From positions 93,891 to 157,890 of the forward strand of contig MGIR01000001.1 in the NCBI GenBank assembly GCA_001793855.1: a stretch of DNA of 64,000 bases, in the 5' to 3' direction. Both the position numbers and the translations under genes were made by a program. Below the pieces are notes generated by a model. The model was not told where the DNA came from. It made no database searches and was given only the letters and a program-made list of their open reading frames with translations. This DNA is from Candidatus Wolfebacteria bacterium RIFCSPLOWO2_01_FULL_45_19 (GTDB lineage Bacteria; Patescibacteriota; Minisyncoccia; UBA6257; GWB1-45-9). This document shows positions 43,596 to 57,310 of the stretch, piece by piece; position 1 is the first letter of the stretch, and each line of letters starts with the position of its first letter.

Positions 43596-46157
43596 CTAAA
43601 GTTTTTCGCGCTCAGCCCACGCGATGTTTATTTTGATTTTTTCCACAATCTTATCCATTGTTCGTTCAAGGCCTTCCAGACGATTCTTTTTGAAAAATTC
43701 TTCCACATCGGCGAGCATTTCTTTTGTCGCGAATCCACCCATTGGTTCAAGTATATCGACCAACATGAAGTAGACGCCGTGATAACGGCTTCTAACCTCG
43801 TCCCAATTACTTTTAATGAACTGCCAAACCATTTTTCTCGCACAATGGTTCGTACCCATGGCGGAAAATAGAATTGGAAAATCTTGTTTCCTTAATTCAT
43901 CACTGAGTGAAAAGTCAAGTATTGTTTTTACCGCATCCACGTCGCGAAAGTTACCCATAGCTATCAGAACTCGCGTTTTTTCTTCGTGAGAGTCGCTTTT
44001 TCTGTGAATTTCGCGCAATGCCGACAAGGTATCGCTGTCGCCGTTTAAGGCAACTATGCTATAAACTGCCTGTCTCAAATCGGGGTCAAGTTTCTCGCCG
44101 TTGATAAATTTTTGAAAACGGCGACTTGCGTTTTTAATTGTATCGGAATCGCCATATTTTCCGGCCATACTCAAAATAAATCCTCGCAAAAGAACGTCAG
44201 TATGCGTATCGGAACGCGATTTTTTCCATCCAAGCAACTTCACCCGCGAATCTATAAGCAGCTGAGCCGTAACGTACAAGCGCTTTAAAATGTCTTCTTG
44301 ATTTCTTTCCTTTAATAAATTGTCAAGAGTTCCTAAAACGTTTCCTATAATCAACCATACGTTATAATTCGTTTCTTGGCGATAAACCAAAAGCATTTCG
44401 AGAACCGAAGAAGTTTCAATTTCTCCAGCTTGAACCAAAGCAAACGCGTCGTCCAAAATGCACATTCTGTCAATCGCGGAAAACTTCTTTTGTTTAACGC
44501 ATTCCGAAAGTTTTTTTAACATACTCTCTGGATACGCAACCCTGTAAAAACCGGCATGTCCGGGATTTAGTTTAATCCAATCATCGCCTTCGGCTTCTAC
44601 ATTTATTTCGTGGCTCTCTTTATCAAGATAATGCCTGGAGGTCCCTCTTGGAGTTAATATTTCAAAAGGAATATTCCAACGCGCATCTTGTTCACTTGTG
44701 TTTTCGGGAAGATACATAAACTGCTTTTGCGAAATCCTAAGCCGGGTTTTTCCGTTTTCGTTGCCAAGGTTTTCCACCATGATTACCGGGTATCCTGATC
44801 GGCGAGTAAACCCCGACATCACATCCTTTACCGGTTTTCCGGAACAGTCCTCCAGCGCCTGCCACAAATCATCGGACACGGCGTTTCCATAAGCGTGCCG
44901 TCTGAGATAAAGGGCGACTCCTTTGTCAAAATACTTACCAAGATAGTGATGAAGCATGCGATTTACCGATGCTCCTTTGTTATACGATATGGAATCGAAT
45001 ATTTCGTTTATTTCTTTTGGATTTTTAACTTCAACTTCAATCGGATGCGTATTTTTCAAACCGTCTTCTCTCAACGCGTCTAAATGAACCTCCGCGACAT
45101 ACCTTTCCAACGCTTGCCATTTTGGAAACTGATTGGAAACAGCTCTGTCCCCGACATATGAGGCGAAGCCTTCATTCAGCCAAAGATGCGTCCACCAAAC
45201 CATGGTCACGTAGTTTCCGAACCATTGATGCGCCAATTCGTGATCCACTACCGACGCAACTCCTTCTTTGGACGAAGCCGATGGATTCTGCGGATCAACC
45301 AAAAGAGCTGTTTCTCTGTAAGTTATCAGCCCCCAGTTTTCCATGGCGCCAGCGGCTAAATCCGGCAGAGAAACCATATCCAATTTTTGCAGAGGATACG
45401 GAATACCGTAAATATTCGCGAAGTATGGCAGTGTATGTAAAGCGCATTCAAGCGCGAATTGTCCATGCGATTGTTTTCCGGGTCTTGTCCAGACGCGAAT
45501 AAGAACTCCGTTGCAATCCCTATTCGCTATACAATCAAGTTCGGCAACAACAAAAGCTACTAGATACGTGGACATTTTTGGCGTGATTTCGAAAAGCACT
45601 TTTTTCAATCCGTAACCCGCGTTCGTTATGGAACGGGGCTCCATGTTTGAAAACGCCGTAAAATTTTCAGGCATCGTCAAGGCAATTCTGAAAGTAGCTT
45701 TGAAATCCGGTTCATCGAAACAGGGGAATGCCCGTCGCGCGTCGCAAGACTCAAGCTGAGTCACGGCTCCCCAACGTTTCTGCCCGTCAATTTTATAGGA
45801 CGTTCGGTAAAATCCGCGCATATTGTCGTTTAGTTCGCCGTTAAAACTCAAATAAAGCATCGGGGTCATTCCGGGTTTAAGTTCAAGTTCCGAATCCTCG
45901 CCCTCAAAGCTCGCAGTTTCCATATCTTTATCATATGAAACTCTAAGCAATTCTTTTGAATTGCCGCAGTCAAGCATCGCGTAATTTATCTTTAAATCCG
46001 CGGCATTCAGAACTATTTTTGACGTGGCCTCAAGTACGTTGAGTTGTATGGATTCTTCGCCTTCAAAAACAAAATTGGCAAGATCCGGCTTTATGTGAAT
46101 GTTGTAATGCAGCGGTTTAACATTTCTTGGCAAACGATGCGGATTTAATTGCTCCAC
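43596..46157 (-). CDS. pepN: aminopeptidase N (M1 family)
   Basis: The HEXXH motif (HELAHQWFGN) is followed by LWLNEGFA and a GAMEN-like region. Confidence 0.9.
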   Translation of the reverse strand: MEQLNPHRLPRNVKPLHYNIHIKPDLANFVFEGEESIQLNVLEATSKIVLNAADLKINYAMLDCGNSKELLRVSYDKDMETASFEGEDSELELKPGMTPMLYLSFNGELNDNMRGFYRTSYKIDGQKRWGAVTQLESCDARRAFPCFDEPDFKATFRIALTMPENFTAFSNMEPRSITNAGYGLKKVLFEITPKMSTYLVAFVVAELDCIANRDCNGVLIRVWTRPGKQSHGQFALECALHTLPYFANIYGIPYPLQKLDMVSLPDLAAGAMENWGLITYRETALLVDPQNPSASSKEGVASVVDHELAHQWFGNYVTMVWWTHLWLNEGFASYVGDRAVSNQFPKWQALERYVAEVHLDALREDGLKNTHPIEVEVKNPKEINEIFDSISYNKGASVNRMLHHYLGKYFDKGVALYLRRHAYGNAVSDDLWQALEDCSGKPVKDVMSGFTRRSGYPVIMVENLGNENGKTRLRISQKQFMYLPENTSEQDARWNIPFEILTPRGTSRHYLDKESHEINVEAEGDDWIKLNPGHAGFYRVAYPESMLKKLSECVKQKKFSAIDRMCILDDAFALVQAGEIETSSVLEMLLVYRQETNYNVWLIIGNVLGTLDNLLKERNQEDILKRLYVTAQLLIDSRVKLLGWKKSRSDTHTDVLLRGFILSMAGKYGDSDTIKNASRRFQKFINGEKLDPDLRQAVYSIVALNGDSDTLSALREIHRKSDSHEEKTRVLIAMGNFRDVDAVKTILDFSLSDELRKQDFPILFSAMGTNHCARKMVWQFIKSNWDEVRSRYHGVYFMLVDILEPMGGFATKEMLADVEEFFKKNRLEGLERTMDKIVEKIKINIAWAEREKL

Positions 46158-46817: not shown

Positions 46818-47351
46818 GCCGATGTAGCCATACCCTTCAATCTGCGACCATTTCTTAATTTGATATTGGTCTATAATCTTAGTATACTAGGATTATGCCA
46901 AATCCTAAGAAGCCCAGGAGCAATTGTCTTATTTGCAGTAAAGAAACGAACCGCGCGGAATATAAATATTGCAGTAACGCATGTCAGCAAGAATATCAAT
47001 ACGATGTGTATATTCATAGATGGAAAAAAGGTGAAGAGAAAGGTTTAAGCTCAATCGGATTAGTTTCACCGTACATAAAACGATATTTACGCAGAAAGTT
47101 TAAAAATAAATGTTGTTTGTGCGAATGGGCAGAAATTAATCCGAAAACTGGATTAGTTCCATTAGTTGCTGATCATATTGATGGAAATTGGAAAAATAAT
47201 ATCGAGAAAAATCTGCGTTTAATTTGTCCGAATTGTGATTCGTTAAGTCCTACGTTTGCTGCGTTAAATAAAGGAAATGGACGAACAAATAGAACTCGAA
47301 GTAAACGGGCACAAGAAGGTCGTTTGTTGGCAATGAATATGCCGATGTAGC
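46818..47351 (+). mobile_element. candidate insertion: free-standing HNH endonuclease gene bounded by 11-bp direct repeats derived from the 5' end of tRNA-Thr
   Basis: gccgatgtagc occurs at 46818-46828 and again at 47341-47351 (the tRNA-Thr 5' end). The enclosed segment is AT-rich. Confidence 0.45.
46895..47350 (+). CDS. HNH endonuclease with zinc-finger
   Basis: The HNH motif (VADHIDGNWKNN...NLRLICPNC) is present with paired CxxC motifs. The CDS 3' end overlaps the tRNA-Thr 5' end. Confidence 0.7.
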   Translation: MPNPKKPRSNCLICSKETNRAEYKYCSNACQQEYQYDVYIHRWKKGEEKGLSSIGLVSPYIKRYLRRKFKNKCCLCEWAEINPKTGLVPLVADHIDGNWKNNIEKNLRLICPNCDSLSPTFAALNKGNGRTNRTRSKRAQEGRLLAMNMPM

Positions 47352-47414
47352 TTAGTGGCAAAGCAATGGTTTCGTAAACCATGGACGGCAGTTCAATTCT
47401 GCCCATCGGCTCCA
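47341..47414 (+). tRNA. tRNA-Thr (anticodon CGU), CCA encoded
   Basis: The acceptor stem is GCCGATG/CATCGGC. The anticodon arm is atggt-TTCGTAA-accat and the T-loop is TTCAATT. The 3' end is TCCA. Confidence 0.85.
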
Positions 47415-48509: not shown

Positions 48510-49566
48510 ATGAAAAAATTTGAAGACAGAAAACAAACGCTGAAAGAGCGCGCCCGACTTCTATCGGGCCGTCTTTGACGTATCGGGAAAAAAGAAAAAG
48601 ATAGAAGAGATTGACGGCGAAGTAAGCAATCCCGAAATATGGAAAGACCGCAGACGCGCGGAGGAATTGCTTAAAGAACGCGGCCAGCTTCACGAATTGG
48701 TCGCGCAGTTTGAGGAACTTGAAAAAGAAATTGAAGTTGCGGACGAGGGGAATATTGATGAGACAGAAAAAAAATTCAACAAACTTGAACTTCAACGGCT
48801 TCTTTCCGGAAAATATGATGCTTCCAACGCCGTGGTTTCAATTTTTTCCGGAGCCGGCGGACAAGACGCCGAGGATTGGACCGCGATGCTTTATGAAATG
48901 TACGCAAAGTACGCTGCAGAGCGCAAATGGCAAATAGTGATTCTGGACGAACGCTTCGGCGAAGTCGGCGCGAAAACCGGGCGTATGCCGTTAAAACACA
49001 TCTCTTTTGAAATAAAAGGGGGGCATGCTTTCGGCTATCTTAAGGGCGAGCAGGGAGTGCACCGCTTGGTGAGAACTTCCCCGTTTTCGGCGAAACAATC
49101 GCGCCACACCTCTTTCGCTCTGGTTGAGGTTTTGCCGGAACTTCCGGAAATAGAAGAAAAAAATATGGTTCTTCCGTCTGAGGACTTGGAAGTGGATTTT
49201 TCGCGCGCAGGCGGTCCCGGCGGCCAGAACGTAAACAAGGTTGAAACGGCTGTACGGATAACCCATAAACCAACCGGAATAACCGCGGCTTCGCGCTCAG
49301 AACGTTCCCAATCGCAAAATCGCGAGAAAGCGCTAAAATTGCTTAAAGCAAAATTATTTCGCTTTATGGAAACGGCTCAAATTAAAGAACTCGGCGCCCT
49401 GCGCACGAAAGTCAAGCCGGAATGGGGCAGTCAGATCCGTTCTTATGTTTTAAACCCGTATAAAATGGTAAAAGACCACCGAACCGGCGCGGAAACGGCG
49501 CAAGTGGAAAATGTGTTAAACGGCGAAATTGATATATTTATTGAAGCCGAGTTACAATTAGGATAA
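48510..49566 (+). CDS. prfB: peptide chain release factor 2, requires programmed +1 frameshift (join 48510..48575, 48577..49566)
   Basis: Frame 0 encodes [22 protein letters not shown] and then TGA. The +1 frame continues as DVSGKKK and runs into the 299-aa RF2 body, which carries SPF and GGQ motifs. Confidence 0.9.
48573..48579 (+). other. canonical RF2 autoregulatory +1 frameshift site CTT TGA C
   Basis: CTTTGAC sits exactly at the junction of the two frames. A weak GGG Shine-Dalgarno-like element lies upstream. Confidence 0.85.
49437..49558 (+). repeat. direct repeat, left copy (prfB 3' end)
   Basis: About 88% identical to 55497-55618. Confidence 0.8.
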
Positions 49567-49568
49567 TC

Positions 49569-52500
49569 ATGAATATTGAAAAATTGCTCCTGTTTTCGTT
49601 AATTGTTGTAATTTTTTGGACAGGGATTTGGGAGATAAATATAGCATTTGCCAATTTTAGCGACGATTTTGAAGCATATGAGGTTGATTCCTTGTTGAGT
49701 GATACCGCCGATTGGGAATGCAGCGGTTCTTCCGTTTGGAGGATAACAGATCAAGATTTTAATACAGGCACTCGTTCGGTGGGTCGCATAGAAAACACTG
49801 GTCACTCCCGTCATTGTTGGAGAAATTTTGAAGTTACGAAATCCGGGGTTTTTAAACTTTCCATAAAAAGACCCTCTACTTTTGGATTCGAAGGCCCAGC
49901 TTTTGAATTAAGAACAGGACCGGGTACTTCCGGCGATTTTGTTGCCAACTTTGCTTATAGTAATGATAGAACCATTTCGTGTAATGCCCCAGGTTTTAGT
50001 TTTACTTGTGGAACTTGGACTCCAAATGAATGGCAAGAACATGGCATAGCTTGGAATTCTGTCAATAATAAAATTCGGTGGTTTATGAATGGTGAATGGA
50101 CTGAATTTAAAAGCAGCGATATTCCTGCTCCCGCGAGCGCTACTATTAGTTGTTGCACCTCCGGCCATGAAGGTGTTTTTCTAGATGATATTAAGTTTAC
50201 TCCAGGAATTAAAAATTTAGAAATCACAGAACCTCCATCAACAGAAATTTCTGAGTCACCTTCAAATTTCGTTATTCAATTTGATACTGATGCAACAAAT
50301 TGGAACGGCAAGGTGGACGTTCAGGTTCGCGAGCTTACAGACCCTTTCCGTGATACCGGTATGCTTTCTGGCTACCAATCTTTCACTTTTTCAAGCGCGG
50401 GCACCAAAACGGTTGCTTTTACTAATCCTCTGAATTTTTTGCCAAGCGGAAGATACAAACTAACCGTTAGAGTATTTGCCTCTGTGCCTGGAGGAGATTT
50501 TCTGGAACTCGATAATATTTCCCGCATATTCCGCCTCCCTTCCGGATTTTTTACCGATCTTGATGAAGATTTTGAAGCATACGAGGTTGGTCAACAATTA
50601 GGCAAACAAGATAATTGGGAATGCAATGAGTCCATAGAAACGCACAGGTGGTTTGTTAATGATGAAAATGTTTTTTCAGGAGCCAGGGCTATACGTAAAA
50701 TGGGCGCTCATGATGCAATTTGTCGTAGAAATTTTGACAACGTTAGCAATGGGCAAATCTTTTTTGCCGCAAATCACGCGCAAGCAGACCCATTTAGCAG
50801 ATTAGCTTTTTCAGTTAGGAATGCGGCAGGCAATATAAATGATCAGTTCGGCGGCTCAGAAGATAGAATCGGACTTATTAATTTAAGAGGAGACGGAACG
50901 GTTGAATGTCACACTATTGAAAGCTCTTCTGTTTGCGGCACTCACAATATAGGCGAATGGGCTCAATATGGTATTGAGTGGGATGGTATATTAGGGCGCG
51001 TTCGTTTTAATGTTAATGGGGAGTGGACGGATTGGTTTGATAGTAATAACGCTCGCGATGGCGCGGAATTTTACTTTTTAGCCGCTGGCGCCGGCTCTGG
51101 CAATACTCAGGTTATGTTTATAGACGATATTCGTTTTGCTTTTGTTACTCCGGAACCAGAACAATTAAATCCTGTTATTATAGTGCCGGGGCTTTTGGGG
51201 TCGTGGCAGAAAGATGGTGAATGGATTATTGATCCGATTTTTCGTAAATATGATGAATTAATTCGTCTTCTTGACGTAAGTGGATACACGCCGGATGTTG
51301 ATTTGTTTACTTTTCCTTATGACTGGCAGCAAGGTGTAAGTTTGAGCAGCGATCAGCTTGCAGCAAAAATTGTCGAAATACGGAGCATTTGCCAGTGTCA
51401 AAAAGTGGATATAATCGCGCACAGCATGGGCGGTTTGGTGGCGCGTTCATATGCCCAAAGTGGTGATTATCAAAACGATATTGACCAAATTATCTTTTTG
51501 GGAACATCGCACGAAGGATTATCTTGGGCATACTTGTTATGGGAAGGAGGAGAAATAACGCCACAAATATTTTCTTTGGGCTTTGATAAAATAATGGAGC
51601 TTTATTTGAATTGGAAATCTATTATTTCTTTCGCTGGAAGTAAATTTGCTTATATCCAAAACGCCATTCTTTCAATTAAAGATTTGTTGCCGACTTATGA
51701 TTACTTGAAGGATGCGGATACTGAAATTTTGCGTAATTATCCTGATAATTATCCCGTCAATTTCTTTTTGGAACTATTGAATTCTTCTTTATCAGAAAAT
51801 AGATTGTCAGAACGCGGTATCAGAATTACTAATATTGTCGGCAACATAGAGCCAAACTTTATAGATGGCAAACTGGTAGATGAAACTTTGGGCACGATAA
51901 GGGTTGTGGATAGGCCTAATCTTTTACCGAAATGGGAGCATGGTTTTCCAGAAAATTTCGACGTACCATTTACCGACCACGGCTTGGAGTTCGATGAGGG
52001 AGATCGCAGAGTTACTCTTGAAAGTGCTTCTCACAACTTTTCTTCAACCGTTATCTCACGTGCCGATCGCAATCTTCACGCAAACTTGCCTGTGGTCGCC
52101 TGGCAGCAAATTCACGAAGCGTTATTCGGCATCCCATCGCCTGAGCGGGGAGTCCCTATTGTTATTGAAGAATCGTTGATTATACCGATTTTTTCGCCTG
52201 CTGATATCCAAATTATCGATCCGCTAGGCAGGAGAATTGGCAAGGATTTTTCAATTGGTCAGGAAATTAATGAAATACCCTTCGCATTCTACAGCGGCTT
52301 TAATAGCGATTTGGAATTTATTTTTATTCCCAATCCTCTTGATGGAGAATATCAAATCAAAGTTCAGGGAACCGATGAGGGCAGTTATGAAGTTCAATCT
52401 GCTTTTGTCAACGATGCAACTTCAACAGTTGCGACTTTTATGGCCAATATTCAAGAGAGCCTTGTTCAGAATCTGAGCTTTGTCTTTAATGTTTCCTCGC

Positions 52501-53129
52501 CGGAGTTAACAACTATACAACCGGAAGATACAACTCCACCTATCATAACCAGCACTCAAATTCCATCCGAAGTTTTGTTGAACTCACCGCCCTTAACGTT
52601 TAATTTCTCAGCTCAAGACGATTTAACGGGTGTATTCAGCATATCAGCAACGCTAAATGATCAATCTATCACTAATGGTTCTGCCATAAACTTTGATATT
52701 CCCGGAACTTACTTTATAGAGATCGTTGCGGAAGATTTTGTGGGCAACGTTGCTACGGAAACAATAATATTTGATGTAATTTATGAGTTTGGCGGTTTTC
52801 TTCCGCCGGTTAAAGCCGATGGCTCTGGCATTTATAAACTCGGCAGAACTTTGCCCGTGAAGTTCCAGTTGGCCGATGTTTCTGGTCAGTTTATTTCTAC
52901 AGCTACAGCGACACTTACCCTTGCTAAAGTTCAAGACGAAAGCATCGGCAACGAGGAAACTCCTCTTTCTACATCGGCGGCTGACACAGATAATATTTTT
53001 AGATATGATAGTGAGAATAACCAATATATTTATAATTTATCTACTGATATGATGTCAGTAGGAACGTGGCAATTAAGAATTAATTTGGATGACGACCGAC
53101 ATTACACAGTGTTTATATCAATAAAATAA
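49569..53129 (+). CDS. large secreted/surface protein: signal/TM + 2 LamG-like domains + class-2-lipase-like alpha/beta hydrolase + Ig-like (HYR/PKD-like) domains + C-terminal ~105-aa variable module
   Basis: The N-terminal hydrophobic segment is followed by a duplicated ~190-aa domain that starts DDFEAYEV and ends DDI(K/R)F. The lipase core (PVIIVPGLLGS, VDIIAHSMGG) resembles B. subtilis LipA (VDIVAHSMGG). A VGN-containing beta-domain follows. The C-terminal module is FRYDSENNQYIYNL...GTWQLRINLDDD. Confidence 0.7.
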   Translation: MNIEKLLLFSLIVVIFWTGIWEINIAFANFSDDFEAYEVDSLLSDTADWECSGSSVWRITDQDFNTGTRSVGRIENTGHSRHCWRNFEVTKSGVFKLSIKRPSTFGFEGPAFELRTGPGTSGDFVANFAYSNDRTISCNAPGFSFTCGTWTPNEWQEHGIAWNSVNNKIRWFMNGEWTEFKSSDIPAPASATISCCTSGHEGVFLDDIKFTPGIKNLEITEPPSTEISESPSNFVIQFDTDATNWNGKVDVQVRELTDPFRDTGMLSGYQSFTFSSAGTKTVAFTNPLNFLPSGRYKLTVRVFASVPGGDFLELDNISRIFRLPSGFFTDLDEDFEAYEVGQQLGKQDNWECNESIETHRWFVNDENVFSGARAIRKMGAHDAICRRNFDNVSNGQIFFAANHAQADPFSRLAFSVRNAAGNINDQFGGSEDRIGLINLRGDGTVECHTIESSSVCGTHNIGEWAQYGIEWDGILGRVRFNVNGEWTDWFDSNNARDGAEFYFLAAGAGSGNTQVMFIDDIRFAFVTPEPEQLNPVIIVPGLLGSWQKDGEWIIDPIFRKYDELIRLLDVSGYTPDVDLFTFPYDWQQGVSLSSDQLAAKIVEIRSICQCQKVDIIAHSMGGLVARSYAQSGDYQNDIDQIIFLGTSHEGLSWAYLLWEGGEITPQIFSLGFDKIMELYLNWKSIISFAGSKFAYIQNAILSIKDLLPTYDYLKDADTEILRNYPDNYPVNFFLELLNSSLSENRLSERGIRITNIVGNIEPNFIDGKLVDETLGTIRVVDRPNLLPKWEHGFPENFDVPFTDHGLEFDEGDRRVTLESASHNFSSTVISRADRNLHANLPVVAWQQIHEALFGIPSPERGVPIVIEESLIIPIFSPADIQIIDPLGRRIGKDFSIGQEINEIPFAFYSGFNSDLEFIFIPNPLDGEYQIKVQGTDEGSYEVQSAFVNDATSTVATFMANIQESLVQNLSFVFNVSSPELTTIQPEDTTPPIITSTQIPSEVLLNSPPLTFNFSAQDDLTGVFSISATLNDQSITNGSAINFDIPGTYFIEIVAEDFVGNVATETIIFDVIYEFGGFLPPVKADGSGIYKLGRTLPVKFQLADVSGQFISTATATLTLAKVQDESIGNEETPLSTSAADTDNIFRYDSENNQYIYNLSTDMMSVGTWQLRINLDDDRHYTVFISIK

Positions 53130-53132
53130 AGC

Positions 53133-53747
53133 ATGAAGAATTTGCCTCAAATGCAAAAATTGGCACTTATATTGTTATTAACGCTCATACTTACCTTTTT
53201 CACGGCGGAATTTATTGGTCGTCTCCTATTTGACTTTATTCTTGACAAATTCCCTCCGATCTTTGGAGTTTCATTTGGATATCAGGAGATGTGGTACTAT
53301 ATTTTCGGCCTCTTTGCGGCACCAATTATTTTGTTCTCTCTTTCTCTCTATATTATCGTTGATAAAACAGAAATACGATTAAAAGAAGTTCTTACGCAGT
53401 TCCTTAAGAGCAGCACGGTTCTATTAGTAACCGCATTGTTGAGTTATTTTATGGGTGGTTATTTTGGATGGATAGCAGAAAGATTTTCCCCAGATTTAGC
53501 CTCTGGTTGGATACCCACGAAATCAGCAAGGATTCTAGTCGGCACACTCCACGCCCCTTCTTTCTTTCTTTCTTTCTTTTACTTTTTTCTCGTGAGAATG
53601 AAAGAGAATATCTTTAGAAATATTATGATTGCTTTTCTAATCCTATCAGTTCTTCCCAACCTTATTTTCGCGCCAATTTATATCGCCGTTGGATACGTAT
53701 TGGCAAAATCTATTCTTTATTTAAAATCACAAATAGTAAAAAAATGA
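53133..53747 (+). CDS. hypothetical membrane protein (204 aa), contains in-frame (TTTC)5
   Basis: Multiple transmembrane segments are present. The protein is a weak paralog of the small ORFs at 54062 and 54878 (FILDKFPPIFGVSFG versus FLENFGIFLTSSFPSL). Confidence 0.5.
   Translation: MKNLPQMQKLALILLLTLILTFFTAEFIGRLLFDFILDKFPPIFGVSFGYQEMWYYIFGLFAAPIILFSLSLYIIVDKTEIRLKEVLTQFLKSSTVLLVTALLSYFMGGYFGWIAERFSPDLASGWIPTKSARILVGTLHAPSFFLSFFYFFLVRMKENIFRNIMIAFLILSVLPNLIFAPIYIAVGYVLAKSILYLKSQIVKK
53557..53580. repeat. (TTTC)5-6 tetranucleotide microsatellite inside CDS
   Basis: cttctttctttctttctttctttt. Confidence 0.8.
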
Positions 53748-54044
53748 CCGCTTTTCAACCGCACACTTCCCGTTAAATTTCAATTAACGGATTTAAATAA
53801 TACCTTCATTGATTCCGCAACAGCCCATCTTTTCCTTGCCAAATTAACAGATGACATACTGGGAACGGAAGAAATAGCCATATCAACATCAAATGCAGAT
53901 ACCGGCAATCAATTTAGATATGACGACGAAAACAACCAATATATATTTAATCTTGATACAGGAACGTTATCCGTAGGAACTTGGCGACTGAGAGTAGAAC
54001 TTGATGATGGAAAAAGCTATATTGTGAATGTATCAATGAGGTGA
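53748..54044 (+). pseudogene. start-less paralogous copy (fragment 1) of the C-terminal module of the 1186-aa protein
   Basis: The fragment encodes LFNRTLPVKFQLTD...FRYDDENNQYIFNLDTGTLSVGTWRLRVELDDGKSYIVNVSMR and then a stop. It begins directly after the stop of ORF 53133. It is about 90% identical in nucleotides to fragment 2. Confidence 0.7.
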
Positions 54045-54061
54045 GGAAATAAAAGAAAAAC

Positions 54062-54262
54062 ATGAAATTTCACATGAAGAAATCATATTGGATAAATCTA
54101 GGGCTTGGGTTGGGAGTTGGGTTGATGTGGGGTTTTGGTATATTTACATACGGGTTTTTAGCAAGAGCGAATGTTTTAATTGCGGAATTTTTAATTAGTG
54201 TTTTTCCTTTCCTGAATTTTAAATTATTTGAACCTGAATATATATATATATATATATTCTAG
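54062..54262 (+). CDS. small membrane ORF (66 aa), truncated paralog of 54878 ORF; ends in (TA)n
   Basis: MKFHMKKSYWINLGLGLGVG matches MKLQIKKSYLISLGLGILGA in the 54878 ORF. Confidence 0.4.
   Translation: MKFHMKKSYWINLGLGLGVGLMWGFGIFTYGFLARANVLIAEFLISVFPFLNFKLFEPEYIYIYIF
54238..54257. repeat. (TA)10 dinucleotide microsatellite at 3' end of ORF 54062
   Basis: tatatatatatatatatata. Confidence 0.85.
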
Positions 54263-54344
54263 CTATTTTATTATTTTACCTCTCTTGTTTTTGAATTTTG
54301 CCTTTCCTATTTTTAGACAAGAATTTCGCGAATCCGTTAACAAG

Positions 54345-54378
54345 CTTTCTTTTCTTTTCTTTTCTTTTCTTTTCTTTC
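54345..54378. repeat. (TTTTC)6 pentanucleotide microsatellite
   Basis: ctttc followed by five copies of ttttc. Confidence 0.85.
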
Positions 54379-54448
54379 GGCGCTATACTTGCTTGTAGAT
54401 TTTGGATTTGGGGTATACATCAAGCCTTCTCCAACGCTTCGTTTCTGT

Positions 54449-54861
54449 AAATAGTAGAATCCAAAGACAATGCTGGTAATCCAAGAGTTTCAGAGTTTCG
54501 TTTTAACGCCATTTATCAATTTAACGGCTTTCTTCCACCTATCAAATCTGATGGCTCCGGCATTTACAAACTCAATCGCACACTTCCTGTTAAATTCCAA
54601 TTAACAGACGCGAACGGCAATTTTATTGATTCCGCAATCGCGTATCTTTTCCTTGCCAAACTAACAAATGACATACTGGGAACAGAAGAAATAGCCATAT
54701 CAACATCAAATGCAGATACAAGCAATCAATTTAGATATGACGATGAAACCAACCAATACATATTCAATCTTGATACCGGAACATTATCCGCAGGAACATG
54801 GAGGTTGAGAACAGAACTTGATGATGGAAAAAGCTATACTGTAGATATATCAATGAGGTGA
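54449..54861 (+). pseudogene. start-less paralogous copy (fragment 2) of the C-terminal region of the 1186-aa protein
   Basis: The fragment encodes VESKDNAGNPRVSEFRFNAIYQFNGFLPPIKSDGSGIYKLNRTLPVKFQLTD...GTWRLRTELDDGKSYTVDISMR and then a stop. It is preceded by an in-frame TAA. Confidence 0.7.
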
Positions 54862-54877
54862 AAAAATAAAGAAAGCT

Positions 54878-55174
54878 ATGAAATTACAAATCAAGAAATC
54901 GTATTTGATTAGTTTGGGGTTGGGGATTTTGGGAGCAGCGGTTGTAATGTTTAGTGCTTTGAAATTTCAATTTTTTGGATTATTTTTGGAAAATTTCGGT
55001 ATTTTTTTAACATCCTCGTTCCCATCTCTTGATATATACTCATTTGAAATTCCGGGCTTTGTAGTTTATTTAATATGTCTTCCTTTTATATTATTAAACA
55101 ACGCGTTCTCCATATTCATTCAAGAACTAAAAGCATCTGCTCATAAGCCTTCTTTTTCTTTTCTTTGGGAGTAG
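54878..55174 (+). CDS. small membrane ORF (98 aa), paralog of 54062 ORF
   Basis: Transmembrane segments are present. Its 3' end contains a TTTTC-type repeat (55150-55168). Confidence 0.45.
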   Translation: MKLQIKKSYLISLGLGILGAAVVMFSALKFQFFGLFLENFGIFLTSSFPSLDIYSFEIPGFVVYLICLPFILLNNAFSIFIQELKASAHKPSFSFLWE

Positions 55175-55196
55175 CATTGTCTTATAGTTTTTTTGT

Positions 55197-55498
55197 TTGG
55201 CTCGCATTGAATACTCTTTCTTTTTAAATTTCAGCAATAAAATCTTTTCTGCCACAGATGATCTATCCGGAGTAGAAATTATTAAGGCAACCCTCAATGA
55301 CGCGTCCATTAATCAAAATGATGTAATAGTAATAGACACAGCAGGGGAATACATTTTACGCATAGAATCCAAAGATAAAGCAGGCAATCCAGCTGTTTTC
55401 GAATCGGAATTCAGCATAATATTATGATTTCGTAAGCATCCTTCCGCCTATCAAGTTAAATGGTTCGGGTATATATAAACGTGGCCGCACTCTTCCTC
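55197..55498 (+). pseudogene. paralogous fragment 3 (frameshifted) of the Ig-like plus C-terminal module
   Basis: The fragment encodes DDLSGVEIIKATLNDASINQ...ESKDKAGNPAVFESEF. After a frameshift near 55425 it encodes YYDFVSILPPIKLNGSGIYKRGRTLP. It abuts the prfB 3' end copy. Confidence 0.6.
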
Positions 55499-55618
55499 GC
55501 TCTTATGTTCTAAACCCGTATAAAATGATAAAAGACCACCGAACCGGCGCGGAAACGGCGCAAGTTGACGAAACGCTGAACGGCGATATTGATATGTTCA
55601 TAGAAGCCGAGTTACAAT
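55497..55618 (+). repeat. direct repeat, right copy: 122-bp duplicate of prfB 3' end (about 88% identical)
   Basis: This copy encodes [41 protein letters not shown]. The prfB 3' end encodes [42 protein letters not shown]. Confidence 0.8.
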
Positions 55619-55690
55619 ATAGTAAGTAGAACTTAGCGAGTAGCAAGTAGAAATCCTACTGCCTACTGTCTAAGTTCTAAATTCTAAACA

Positions 55691-56371
55691 ATGATTGCTT
55701 TTCAAAACGTAACAAAAGCCTACAACGGCACCGCGGCGCTTGAAGACGTTACCTTCAAAATTATGCCGCAGGAATTCGTGTCCGTCGTGGGACGTTCCGG
55801 CGCAGGAAAATCAACAATAATCAAACTTCTCATAGGCGAAGAAAGGCCGAACAAAGGCCGCGTGATTTTTGGCTCTTACGAAGTCAATCGCTTGAATCAT
55901 AAAGAACTGCCGTATCTCCGCCGCCATATCGGCGTAGTGTTTCAGGACTTCCGCCTTCTACCGATGAAAAATGTTTACGAAAACACGGCTTTCGCGCTTG
56001 AAGTCGCGGGCCGACAGCAGATAGAAATAGAAGAATTGGTTCCGGAGATTTTGGATATGGTCGGCTTGCGCGACAAAGCGAAAAATTTCCCGCACGAGCT
56101 TTCCGGCGGCGAGAAACAGCGCGTTGCCATCGCGCGCGCGATGATAAATCGCCCAGAAGTTATCGTAGCGGACGAACCAACCGGCAACCTTGACCCGATT
56201 AATACTTGGGAAATAATAAAGCTTCTGCACAAAATAAACGAGCTCGGAACCACCATAGTTCTCGCGACGCATGCCAAAGACATAGTCAATCATATCGGAA
56301 AACGGGTTATTACTCTTGAAAACGGCCGCGTGATTCGCGACGAAGAAAAAGGAAAGTATCTGCTTGTATGA
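55691..56371 (+). CDS. ftsE: cell division ATP-binding protein FtsE
   Basis: The ABC Walker A motif (GRSGAGKST), the LSGGEKQR signature and Walker B (VIVADEPTGNLD) are present. Confidence 0.9.
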   Translation: MIAFQNVTKAYNGTAALEDVTFKIMPQEFVSVVGRSGAGKSTIIKLLIGEERPNKGRVIFGSYEVNRLNHKELPYLRRHIGVVFQDFRLLPMKNVYENTAFALEVAGRQQIEIEELVPEILDMVGLRDKAKNFPHELSGGEKQRVAIARAMINRPEVIVADEPTGNLDPINTWEIIKLLHKINELGTTIVLATHAKDIVNHIGKRVITLENGRVIRDEEKGKYLLV

Positions 56372-56401: not shown

Positions 56402-57310
56402 ATGGTAACTTCTCTATATCGCATAGTAAAAAGGGGATTGATAAACTTCTGGCGAAACGGATGGCTCTCCGCCGCGACTATCGCGGTTATGATTTTGGCG
56501 CTTCTGGTTTTTGAAGGCCTTATTATCTTCAAAGTAATGACGGAGGCCGCCCTCGGCGCGATACAGGAAAAAATAGACATAAGCGTTTACTTTAAAACCA
56601 CTGCTCCGGAAGATGAAATATTACGAGTCAAAACCTCTCTGGAGAGCTTGGTTGAGGTCAGAAAAGTTGAATACGTTTCACGGGATAAAGCGCTTGAGCT
56701 GTTCAGCGAGCGCCACAAAGACGACCCGACCATAAGCGAAGCCATTGGAGAACTTGAAGAAAATCCTTTATCCGCGTCTTTGAACGTGAAGGCCTATGAC
56801 CCGAAACAATACGCCATTATAGCGTCATATCTTAATAATGAGTCGCTGACGGTCATCGTGGATAAAGTGACGTATTTTCAAAATCAAATTGTCATAGACC
56901 GTCTCACGGCTATGATAGACGCCGCCGAACGCGGAGGATTCTTCTTGACCGTATTCTTGTCGATTATAGCCGGACTCGTCGTTTTTAATACGGTGCGCCT
57001 TGCCATTTACACCAACCGCGAAGAAATAAACATAATGCGTCTTGTCGGCGCTTCAAATAAATTCATCCGCGGCCCGTATGTCGTGGAGGGCATACTGTAT
57101 GGCCTCATAGCCGCGTTCTTTGCCGTTACGATATCTTTCCCGCTTGTTTACGCGGCATCTCCATACGTGGAAGTATTGATTCCGGGGATGAACCTTTACG
57201 GCTACTTTTTATCAAATCTTCCGTCACTTCTGGTCTATTTGATAATTTTCGGCATACTTTTAGCCGTCATATCCAGCGCGATTTCAATACGTAAATATTT
57301 AAGAGCGTAA
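56402..57310 (+). CDS. ftsX: cell division permease FtsX
   Basis: Four transmembrane segments surround a large extracellular loop. The gene follows ftsE. Confidence 0.85.
   Translation: MVTSLYRIVKRGLINFWRNGWLSAATIAVMILALLVFEGLIIFKVMTEAALGAIQEKIDISVYFKTTAPEDEILRVKTSLESLVEVRKVEYVSRDKALELFSERHKDDPTISEAIGELEENPLSASLNVKAYDPKQYAIIASYLNNESLTVIVDKVTYFQNQIVIDRLTAMIDAAERGGFFLTVFLSIIAGLVVFNTVRLAIYTNREEINIMRLVGASNKFIRGPYVVEGILYGLIAAFFAVTISFPLVYAASPYVEVLIPGMNLYGYFLSNLPSLLVYLIIFGILLAVISSAISIRKYLRA

Follow-up and report, generated by a model that had tools for sequence, protein, structure and literature searches.

Two diverged prfB 3' ends around a surface-protein locus in the prfB-ftsEX junction of a Wolfebacteria genome: a possible scar of homology-anchored recombination

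How did a block of surface-protein genes come to lie between prfB, the gene for peptide chain release factor 2 (RF2), and ftsE, and why is this block bracketed by two diverged copies of the prfB 3' end? The question is raised by a 64,000-nt stretch of DNA (hereafter the window) from Candidatus Wolfebacteria bacterium RIFCSPLOWO2_01_FULL_45_19 (contig MGIR01000001.1, positions 93,891-157,890, forward strand). The species is a groundwater bacterium of the candidate phyla radiation (CPR) that has been deposited both as Parcubacteria GW2011_GWB1_45_9 and as Candidatus Wolfebacteria RIFCSPLOWO2_01_FULL_45_19. The original prediction for this locus was a candidate genomic island or att-like insertion into the prfB 3' end. 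We favor, with a probability of about 0.5, a different origin: the repeat would be the scar of a homology-anchored recombination that placed a surface-protein locus in the prfB-ftsEX junction. A site-specific recombinase is not needed for such an insertion.

The block and its flanking repeats

The main features of the locus are the following (positions in the window).

48510-49566, + strand: prfB (RF2), intact; Pfam PCRF and RF-1; 'peptide chain release factor 2', KKU15434.1
49438-49558, + strand: repeat copy 1, in use as the prfB 3' end; encodes the last 40 conserved residues of RF2
49569-53129, + strand: gene for a 1186-aa orphan surface or secreted protein; Pfam LCAT/PGAP1, NF038114, internal paralogy
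55498-55629, + strand: repeat copy 2, with YSK and a stop as its own tail; 5'-truncated prfB relic in frame with the truncated PxKF start to which it is fused
55691-56371 and 56402-57310, + strand: ftsE and ftsX (Pfam), the conserved downstream neighbors of prfB, 3' of copy 2

By our reading of the sequence, prfB also carries the canonical programmed +1 frameshift site CTT TGA C at 48573-48579. Within the window, BLAST aligned 49438-49558 with 55498-55618 over 121 nt without gaps, of which 106 are identical (88%, E 3e-34); the 15 mismatches leave a longest exact run of 37 nt. The original prediction had given the repeat as 122 bp. Positions 49437 and 55497 differ, hence the repeat begins at 49438 and 55498 and the predicted left edge was one base off, but the repeat itself was recovered by both BLAST and a repeat search, and its similarity is significant. 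The C-terminus of RF2 was found by tblastn in these two copies only in the 64 kb.

The surroundings of prfB were compared in 106 Patescibacteria loci from genomes and metagenomes (80 unique, 60 of them with at least 1 kb of downstream sequence). In 49 of the 60 unique loci ftsE, usually together with ftsX, lies downstream of prfB on the same strand. The empty target, with prfB and ftsE no more than 300 nt apart, is seen in 45 of the 60. Among relatives whose RF2 is at least 50% identical, ftsE is present in 36 of 37 and the largest gap is 629 nt. The median gap over all loci with ftsE is 74 nt, compared to 6124 nt in the window, and a few lineages have one small unrelated gene at the junction. 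A second prfB end was seen in none of the 106 loci, and the genes of the block have no homologues there. Given this adjacency of prfB and ftsE in relatives, the 5.9-kb block is, by comparison with them, an insertion into the conserved prfB-ftsE-ftsX order. The prediction that everything between the repeats had been inserted thus holds: direct adjacency is typical, and no relative was found that carries the same genes there without the repeat. RF2 scans of genomes and metagenomes, aimed at an empty site in the species itself or at a closely related genome, gave only relatives with at most 61-67% amino acid identity and no member of the window's species. Composition had also been proposed as a check. 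No other part of the window deviates as much as the block (tetranucleotide z up to 3.97), whose G+C content at third codon positions (GC3) is 0.34 compared to 0.48-0.53 in the flanking genes.

The first gene of the block starts 2 nt past the prfB stop. Its 1186-aa product consists of an N-terminal hydrophobic segment, two paralogous ~200-aa domains, a lipase domain, an Ig-like region and a PxKF domain, in this order. The lipase domain is of the LCAT/PGAP1 type with the motif AHSMGG (Pfam), and the C-terminal PxKF 'rightmost' domain (52794-53126) matches NCBIfam NF038114 with E 1e-20. A close homologue of the whole protein was absent from 5.8 billion proteins, where the best match reached 28% identity in the lipase part only. 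The rest of the block holds small membrane genes that alternate with start-less copies (relic tips) of the C-terminal end of this protein.

53133-53747, + strand: gene for a 204-aa multi-pass membrane protein, partner of the expressed tip; contains (TTCT)5.5; no family match
53754-54046, + strand: relic tip 2, start-less PxKF from residue 16 (first 15 missing); begins 6 nt past the stop of the 204-aa gene
54062-54450, + strand: membrane gene mem', frameshifted at (AT)10 and (TTTCT)6.4
54451-54862, + strand: relic tip 3, start-less Ig-like end and complete PxKF, directly after the mem' stop
54878-55227, + strand: membrane gene mem98; its open reading frame (ORF) in the window ends at 55174
55228-55497, + strand: relic tip 4, a longer Ig fragment with one frameshift and the first ~22 PxKF codons, cut at 55497

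The microsatellites lie at 54238-54257 for (AT)10, 54346-54377 for (TTTCT)6.4 and 53558-53579 for (TTCT)5.5. The lipase, the start-less C-terminal copies and the microsatellites had thus been correctly recognized in the original prediction, but for the LamG assignment of the N-terminal domains Pfam gave nothing at E < 1. Clear paralogy, proposed earlier for the membrane ORFs, holds for only two of the three. All tips belong to one family (58-62% amino acid identity). Each of the three start-less tips has a different 5' truncation point, and each begins at, or no more than 6 nt from, the stop of a small membrane gene. Local duplicates ~790-915 nt apart make up the tail of the block. At its right end (55497|55498, junction J4), the PxKF module is cut at approximately codon 22 and joined in frame to a prfB codon.

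Two observations concern the individual genes of the block. In one scaffold (L050/L119, SAMN03842431), 80 nt and ~54 nt are missing in the lipase part (window 51320-51399 and 51889-51942), which splits the 1186-aa gene into ORFs of 583, 175 and 381 aa; the scaffold also has a run of N at the place of 55135-55144. This variant may be a real inactivated form or a scaffolding artefact. The 204-aa ORF and relic tip 2 share a reading frame, with only TGA and two codons between them (53745-53756). The presence of RF2 and its UGA frameshift site speaks for UGA as a stop in this organism, and the shared frame is probably a matter of chance (1 in 3).

The two prfB ends and their exchange

The 15 differences between the copies are distributed over codon positions 1, 2 and 3 as 5/1/9, they introduce no stop and no indel, and they change six residues, all of them conservatively. 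When random mutation of copy 1 was simulated, 1.1% of the simulated sequences matched the observed amino acid changes and stops (P = 0.011) and 0.3% matched the codon-position bias (P = 0.003). This coding-type pattern indicates that most of the divergence arose while both sequences were coding, and it suggests that the copies are two prfB alleles from different lineages. The earlier description of the differences as mostly synonymous or conservative, with a related donor as their source, agrees with this; by its 5/1/9 distribution, the divergence resembles that of functional alleles. Copy 1 has kept every residue that is invariant in the 106 relatives, and its tail, LQLG followed by the stop, resembles the tails of the relatives.

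Copy 2 lies next to a 61-nt spacer that separates its stop from ftsE. Three features were found in and around the two copies.

55627-55680, + strand: strong hairpin in the 61-nt spacer (dG -29.9, z -5.0)
49529-49558, + strand: sigma-70-like TTGATA-18-TACAAT that closes copy 1 on its right; ATG of the 1186-aa gene 11 nt downstream; consensus match only
55589-55618, + strand: TTGATA-18-TACAAT at the end of copy 2, probable ftsEX promoter; consensus match only

The folding z of the whole spacer is -5.3; the spacers of relatives (n = 31) have a median z of -2.4, and 58% of them are below -2. The hairpin spacer had no match in Rfam and could be a leader or a terminator-like element. Since structured spacers of similar size are typical of the relatives, copy 2, the spacer and ftsEX together are best read as an intact junction of the ancestral type minus its prfB body. 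The GC3 of the diverged distal part is 6/18 in copy 1 (0.34 in the block) and 9/18 in copy 2 (0.50 in upstream prfB), a difference that is not significant. This hint and the native-like spacer give a weak preference for copy 2 as the resident end, so that copy 1 would weakly be assigned the part of the immigrant.

The motif TTGATA-18-TACAAT matches the sigma-70 consensus at 10 of 12 positions, and the repeat terminates exactly at its -10 hexamer. Promoter-like matches also cluster within 25 nt of the prfB stop in relatives, where they occur at the prfB end in 17 of 73 unique loci, compared to 4.6 +/- 2.0 expected from synonymous-codon resampling (400 trials, maximum 10; the relatives are phylogenetically non-independent, and all are consensus matches only). 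These counts suggest that an ftsEX promoter is embedded in the coding end of prfB. The relic has probably been kept as the carrier of this promoter in its last 30 nt, and the copy in prfB probably sets the same promoter, along with an AGGA Shine-Dalgarno-like sequence, before the inserted gene. If this is true, an ftsEX promoter would lie inside the prfB coding end across Patescibacteria, a side point that can be tested.

Other contigs of the species differ from the window in a way that bears on recombination. In one contig (L051), six clustered changes (54638-54667) turn relic tip 3 into the sequence of tip 2 (53821-53850); by its sequence, this ~30-nt patch arose in a natural population by gene conversion of one silent copy by another. 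In two others (L054 and L055), single-nucleotide polymorphisms (SNPs) of the copy-1 type are followed by the copy-2 flank and ftsE; the crossover point differs between the two contigs and lies within the last 16 nt in one of them. A 4.4-kb contig (L128) has three synonymous SNPs at 49437-49473 and none in its other 4.3 kb. Two of these SNPs match copy 2 and one is new, so the cluster looks like a short patch imported from another prfB allele. Recombination is thus active at this locus, and the repeats, to judge from these contigs, still exchange sequence in the population.

L054 and L055 were also considered as proof that the block is excised, and this was rejected. Each begins 58 nt before the branch, which is k-1 for a MEGAHIT graph cut at k=59 and carries no information on the sequence to the left, and deletion of the block and conversion of copy 2 are equally possible. 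All four members of the 90% protein cluster of prfB have the copy-1 tail, and no assembled deletion variant is on record.

Recombination model and its alternatives

In the reading that we favor, DNA from a related lineage would have brought in a prfB 3' end to which the 1186-aa gene and the downstream cassettes were attached. The incoming prfB end would have paired with the resident prfB 3' end, followed either by a single (Campbell-type) crossover of a circularized fragment or by homology-facilitated illegitimate recombination (HFIR), in which one end is exchanged by homology and the other is joined illegitimately. As an outcome of either route, copy 1 would complete the gene, and copy 2 would be left behind as a 5'-truncated relic that still adjoins its old spacer and ftsEX. 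Earlier or later rounds of the same displacement may account for the three start-less PxKF fragments. One boundary of the block does lie within prfB homology, with the homologous stretch duplicated, and the other, at J4, is abrupt. Among recombination genes, only RecO was seen in the window.

Several points weigh against this model. In copy 2, I replaces a V that all 106 relatives share, and T stands at a V/I site that hardly varies, which means that part of the divergence is decay, and with only 15 informative sites the selection tests are modest. The closest sampled relatives have an RF2 identity of ~61%, at which timing and polarity cannot be fixed. HFIR junctions usually show microhomology of a few bases, often 3-10 nt; at J4, 0-1 nt is visible. 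A donor lineage was not found, nor was a genome with prfB directly before a homologue of the 1186-aa gene, and the model requires an earlier, unexplained event that brought the block and a prfB end together. Moreover, the three junctions that lie exactly at the stops of membrane genes are tidier than random fragment ends.

An improbable alternative is a rearrangement in situ within one lineage, in which the prfB 3' end was duplicated as the block arose, by a long target duplication or by a tandem duplication followed by deletion, and the spare copy then diverged by 12%. The local duplicates in the block tail speak for such a history, as do the two substitutions of copy 2 at invariant or near-invariant positions, which are expected in a decaying relic, and gene conversion between the repeats could have blurred it. 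The third-position bias without stops or indels is hard to reconcile with neutral change of the spare copy (P 0.003-0.011). The relic is also GC-richer at 9 of the 12 strong/weak sites, where decay toward the AT-rich block predicts the opposite, although this is not significant (binomial p = 0.15). Each copy has a plausible RF2 tail, that of copy 1 matching the relatives rather than random insert sequence, and a tandem duplication would have put the 1186-aa gene, not ftsE, after copy 2.

The integrative element of the original prediction appears more doubtful again. It would be a decayed site-specific element whose attP mimicked the prfB 3' end; through its integrase, the gene would have been restored (attL) and attR placed in front of ftsE, and the integrase gene would later have been lost or act in trans. 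Direct repeats around the insert, the regenerated target 3' end, a 37-nt exact core, the 'empty' arrangement in relatives and the deviant composition all agree with this, and excision could account for the hybrid repeats next to ftsE. However, Pfam searches of the block proteins and of all called genes at ~5.5-64 kb of the window plus 2 kb, together with PHROGs, revealed no integrase, excisionase, transposase, replication gene or transfer gene in these ~58 kb. The earlier statement that the block holds no integrase was therefore correct. The block gave nothing in PHROG, PADLOC, plasmid, IMG/VR and Rfam searches, matches in phage databases being confined to the conserved prfB 3' end, and the element was found nowhere else (106 relatives' loci, 5.8 billion proteins, IMG/VR, plasmids), which makes it an orphan locus of one species. 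The different crossover points of the two hybrids fit homologous, not site-specific, exchange, and the left arm of the supposed attR is a truncated coding module. A literature search found no report of prfB as an integration target. Illegitimate recombination, which the original prediction had named as an alternative, stands in part: the abrupt left edge of copy 2 fits it better than an att site, but microhomology there is 0-1 nt.

A misassembly of the block or of the second copy, to which several short contigs ending within or beside the repeat might point, is negligible, because the prfB-block-ftsEX arrangement recurs at 99.8-100% identity across contigs from at least eight samples and different assemblers, the long ones measuring 51-170 kb, and because copies that are 88% identical with exact runs of at most 37 nt are too diverged for collapse at k >= 59.

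The neighborhood upstream of prfB was also inspected. At 46895-47350, a free-standing gene for an HNH endonuclease (PHROG E 8e-14, without a Pfam match) precedes prfB by 1.2 kb; in another contig (L017), an HNH gene with 68% identity stands directly upstream of prfB. A tRNA-Thr(CGT) gene (47341-47414), the sole tRNA gene near the block and outside it, overlaps the 3' end of the HNH gene and the listed start of the next ORF. One 15.5-kb contig (L125) has dense SNP clusters in the M1 aminopeptidase gene (window 44333-46139) and a single further SNP (49283) in its remainder, which suggests recombination imports elsewhere in the genome.

PxKF tips and comparison with known systems

No toxin, immunity or defence matches were found in the block, the tip being the NF038114 PxKF 'rightmost' domain. 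A search with one of the membrane ORFs gave no relatives even by exhaustive HMMER, and a search with a relic tip gave PxKF fragments of at most 64% identity that never adjoin prfB or ftsE.

Beside PxKF tips, a perfect (CTTTT)6 coding tract (FSFLFFSFLFF) occurs at the homologous place in the membrane genes of three loci from different assemblies: window 54346-54375, contig L131 9896-9925 and contig L137 966-995. The membrane gene reads in frame through the tract in L131 and is out of frame after it in mem' and in L137. The corresponding places in the other membrane genes of the window are 53561-53580 and 55150-55164. In contig L048, the T-run at 55151-55155, in the degenerate tract of mem98, is one nt shorter, which restores the frame of mem98 to 55227. 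These length differences hint that the partners of PxKF tips are phase-variable, with (CTTTT)6 and the T-run as candidate switches, but the family of these partners was not delimited by sequence searches.

Giant genes that end in Ig and PxKF, followed by a small gene and then by one or two start-less Ig and PxKF fragments, were also seen in other organisms (L131 5518-11590, L135/L136 3951-11700, L137 37-1136); the array of L131 ends at an IS200-type Y1 transposase gene. Such PxKF tip arrays may, by their sequence, be a general feature. The locus thereby suggests a second side point that can be tested: displacement arrays may have formed in several lineages from PxKF tips and membrane partners that bear microsatellites.

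In a bolder view, which we consider possible but unlikely, the block would be a functioning locus at which a CPR surface protein exchanges its tips, first anchored on prfB, with new tips displacing old ones. PxKF tips would travel with small membrane partners that are toggled at (CTTTT)6. New tips would enter by homology-anchored recombination, and silent tips would exchange sequence by gene conversion. The first event would have been anchored on the essential prfB and would have duplicated the embedded ftsEX promoter. If true, the CPR would have a counterpart of the tip displacement in rhs and contact-dependent inhibition (CDI) systems, or of antigenic-variation cassettes, that uses a protein family unrelated to theirs.

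Genomes of CPR/Patescibacteria are small and syntenic and are thought to be poor in mobile elements. Lineage-specific gain of surface genes in CPR is poorly documented, and this locus offers a concrete example: within a conserved operon junction sits a surface lipase/adhesin locus that evolves fast. The scar points to RecA-type recombination with DNA of a related lineage, not to an integrase.

Three kinds of known systems resemble this arrangement. Some genomic islands insert into the 3' ends of genes, classically those of tRNA or tmRNA, and carry a replacement 3' end. As in these islands, direct repeats of the target 3' end bracket the insert here, the gene is intact and the composition is atypical. 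Unlike them, the block has no mobility genes, its repeats are 88% identical, the hybrids have variable crossovers, and the element occurs nowhere else.

The second kind is the rhs tips, for which displacement of C-terminal ends by recombination with circular intermediates was proposed by Jackson et al. 2009 (PMC2935791). In that model, incoming DNA consists of homology to the 3' end of the resident gene and new downstream DNA, and the homologous stretch is duplicated. The old 3' end is displaced as a start-less, 5'-truncated fragment together with its partner, and repetition of the process builds arrays. The prfB relic conforms to this geometry, and so do the three PxKF tips; a circular intermediate is putative here. 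In contrast to rhs, one displaced gene is the essential housekeeping gene prfB, the host is a CPR bacterium, the tips are 'rightmost' domains of the PxKF beta-sandwich type and not toxins, and the partners are small membrane proteins. A main gene followed by start-less C-terminal fragments with small partners, as also seen in L131 and L135, is shared with Rhs, CDI and type VI secretion system (T6SS) loci more generally; unlike in those, the C-terminal domain has no toxin match and the partner has no immunity match.

The third kind is HFIR itself. Orphan-immunity arrays of T6SS have been attributed to it by Kirchberger et al. (PMC5361080), and for HFIR in natural transformation that article cites de Vries & Wackernagel 2002, Prudhomme et al. 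2002 and Meier & Wackernagel 2003. A case in E. coli conjugation has also been described (PMC3240628). The present locus resembles HFIR in having one homologous anchor and one non-homologous junction, in the insertion of DNA from a diverged relative, in the retention of the resident downstream genes and in the lack of a dedicated recombinase. It differs from published HFIR in having no visible microhomology at the junction, and the process is here deduced from the arrangement of the DNA. Within the CPR, natural competence is documented only for Saccharibacteria, and com genes are reported to be shared by the phyla of the radiation (PMC10633639). Scars of C-terminal displacement and of the HFIR type are already known, and the prfB-anchored case in a CPR bacterium would be a variant of them.

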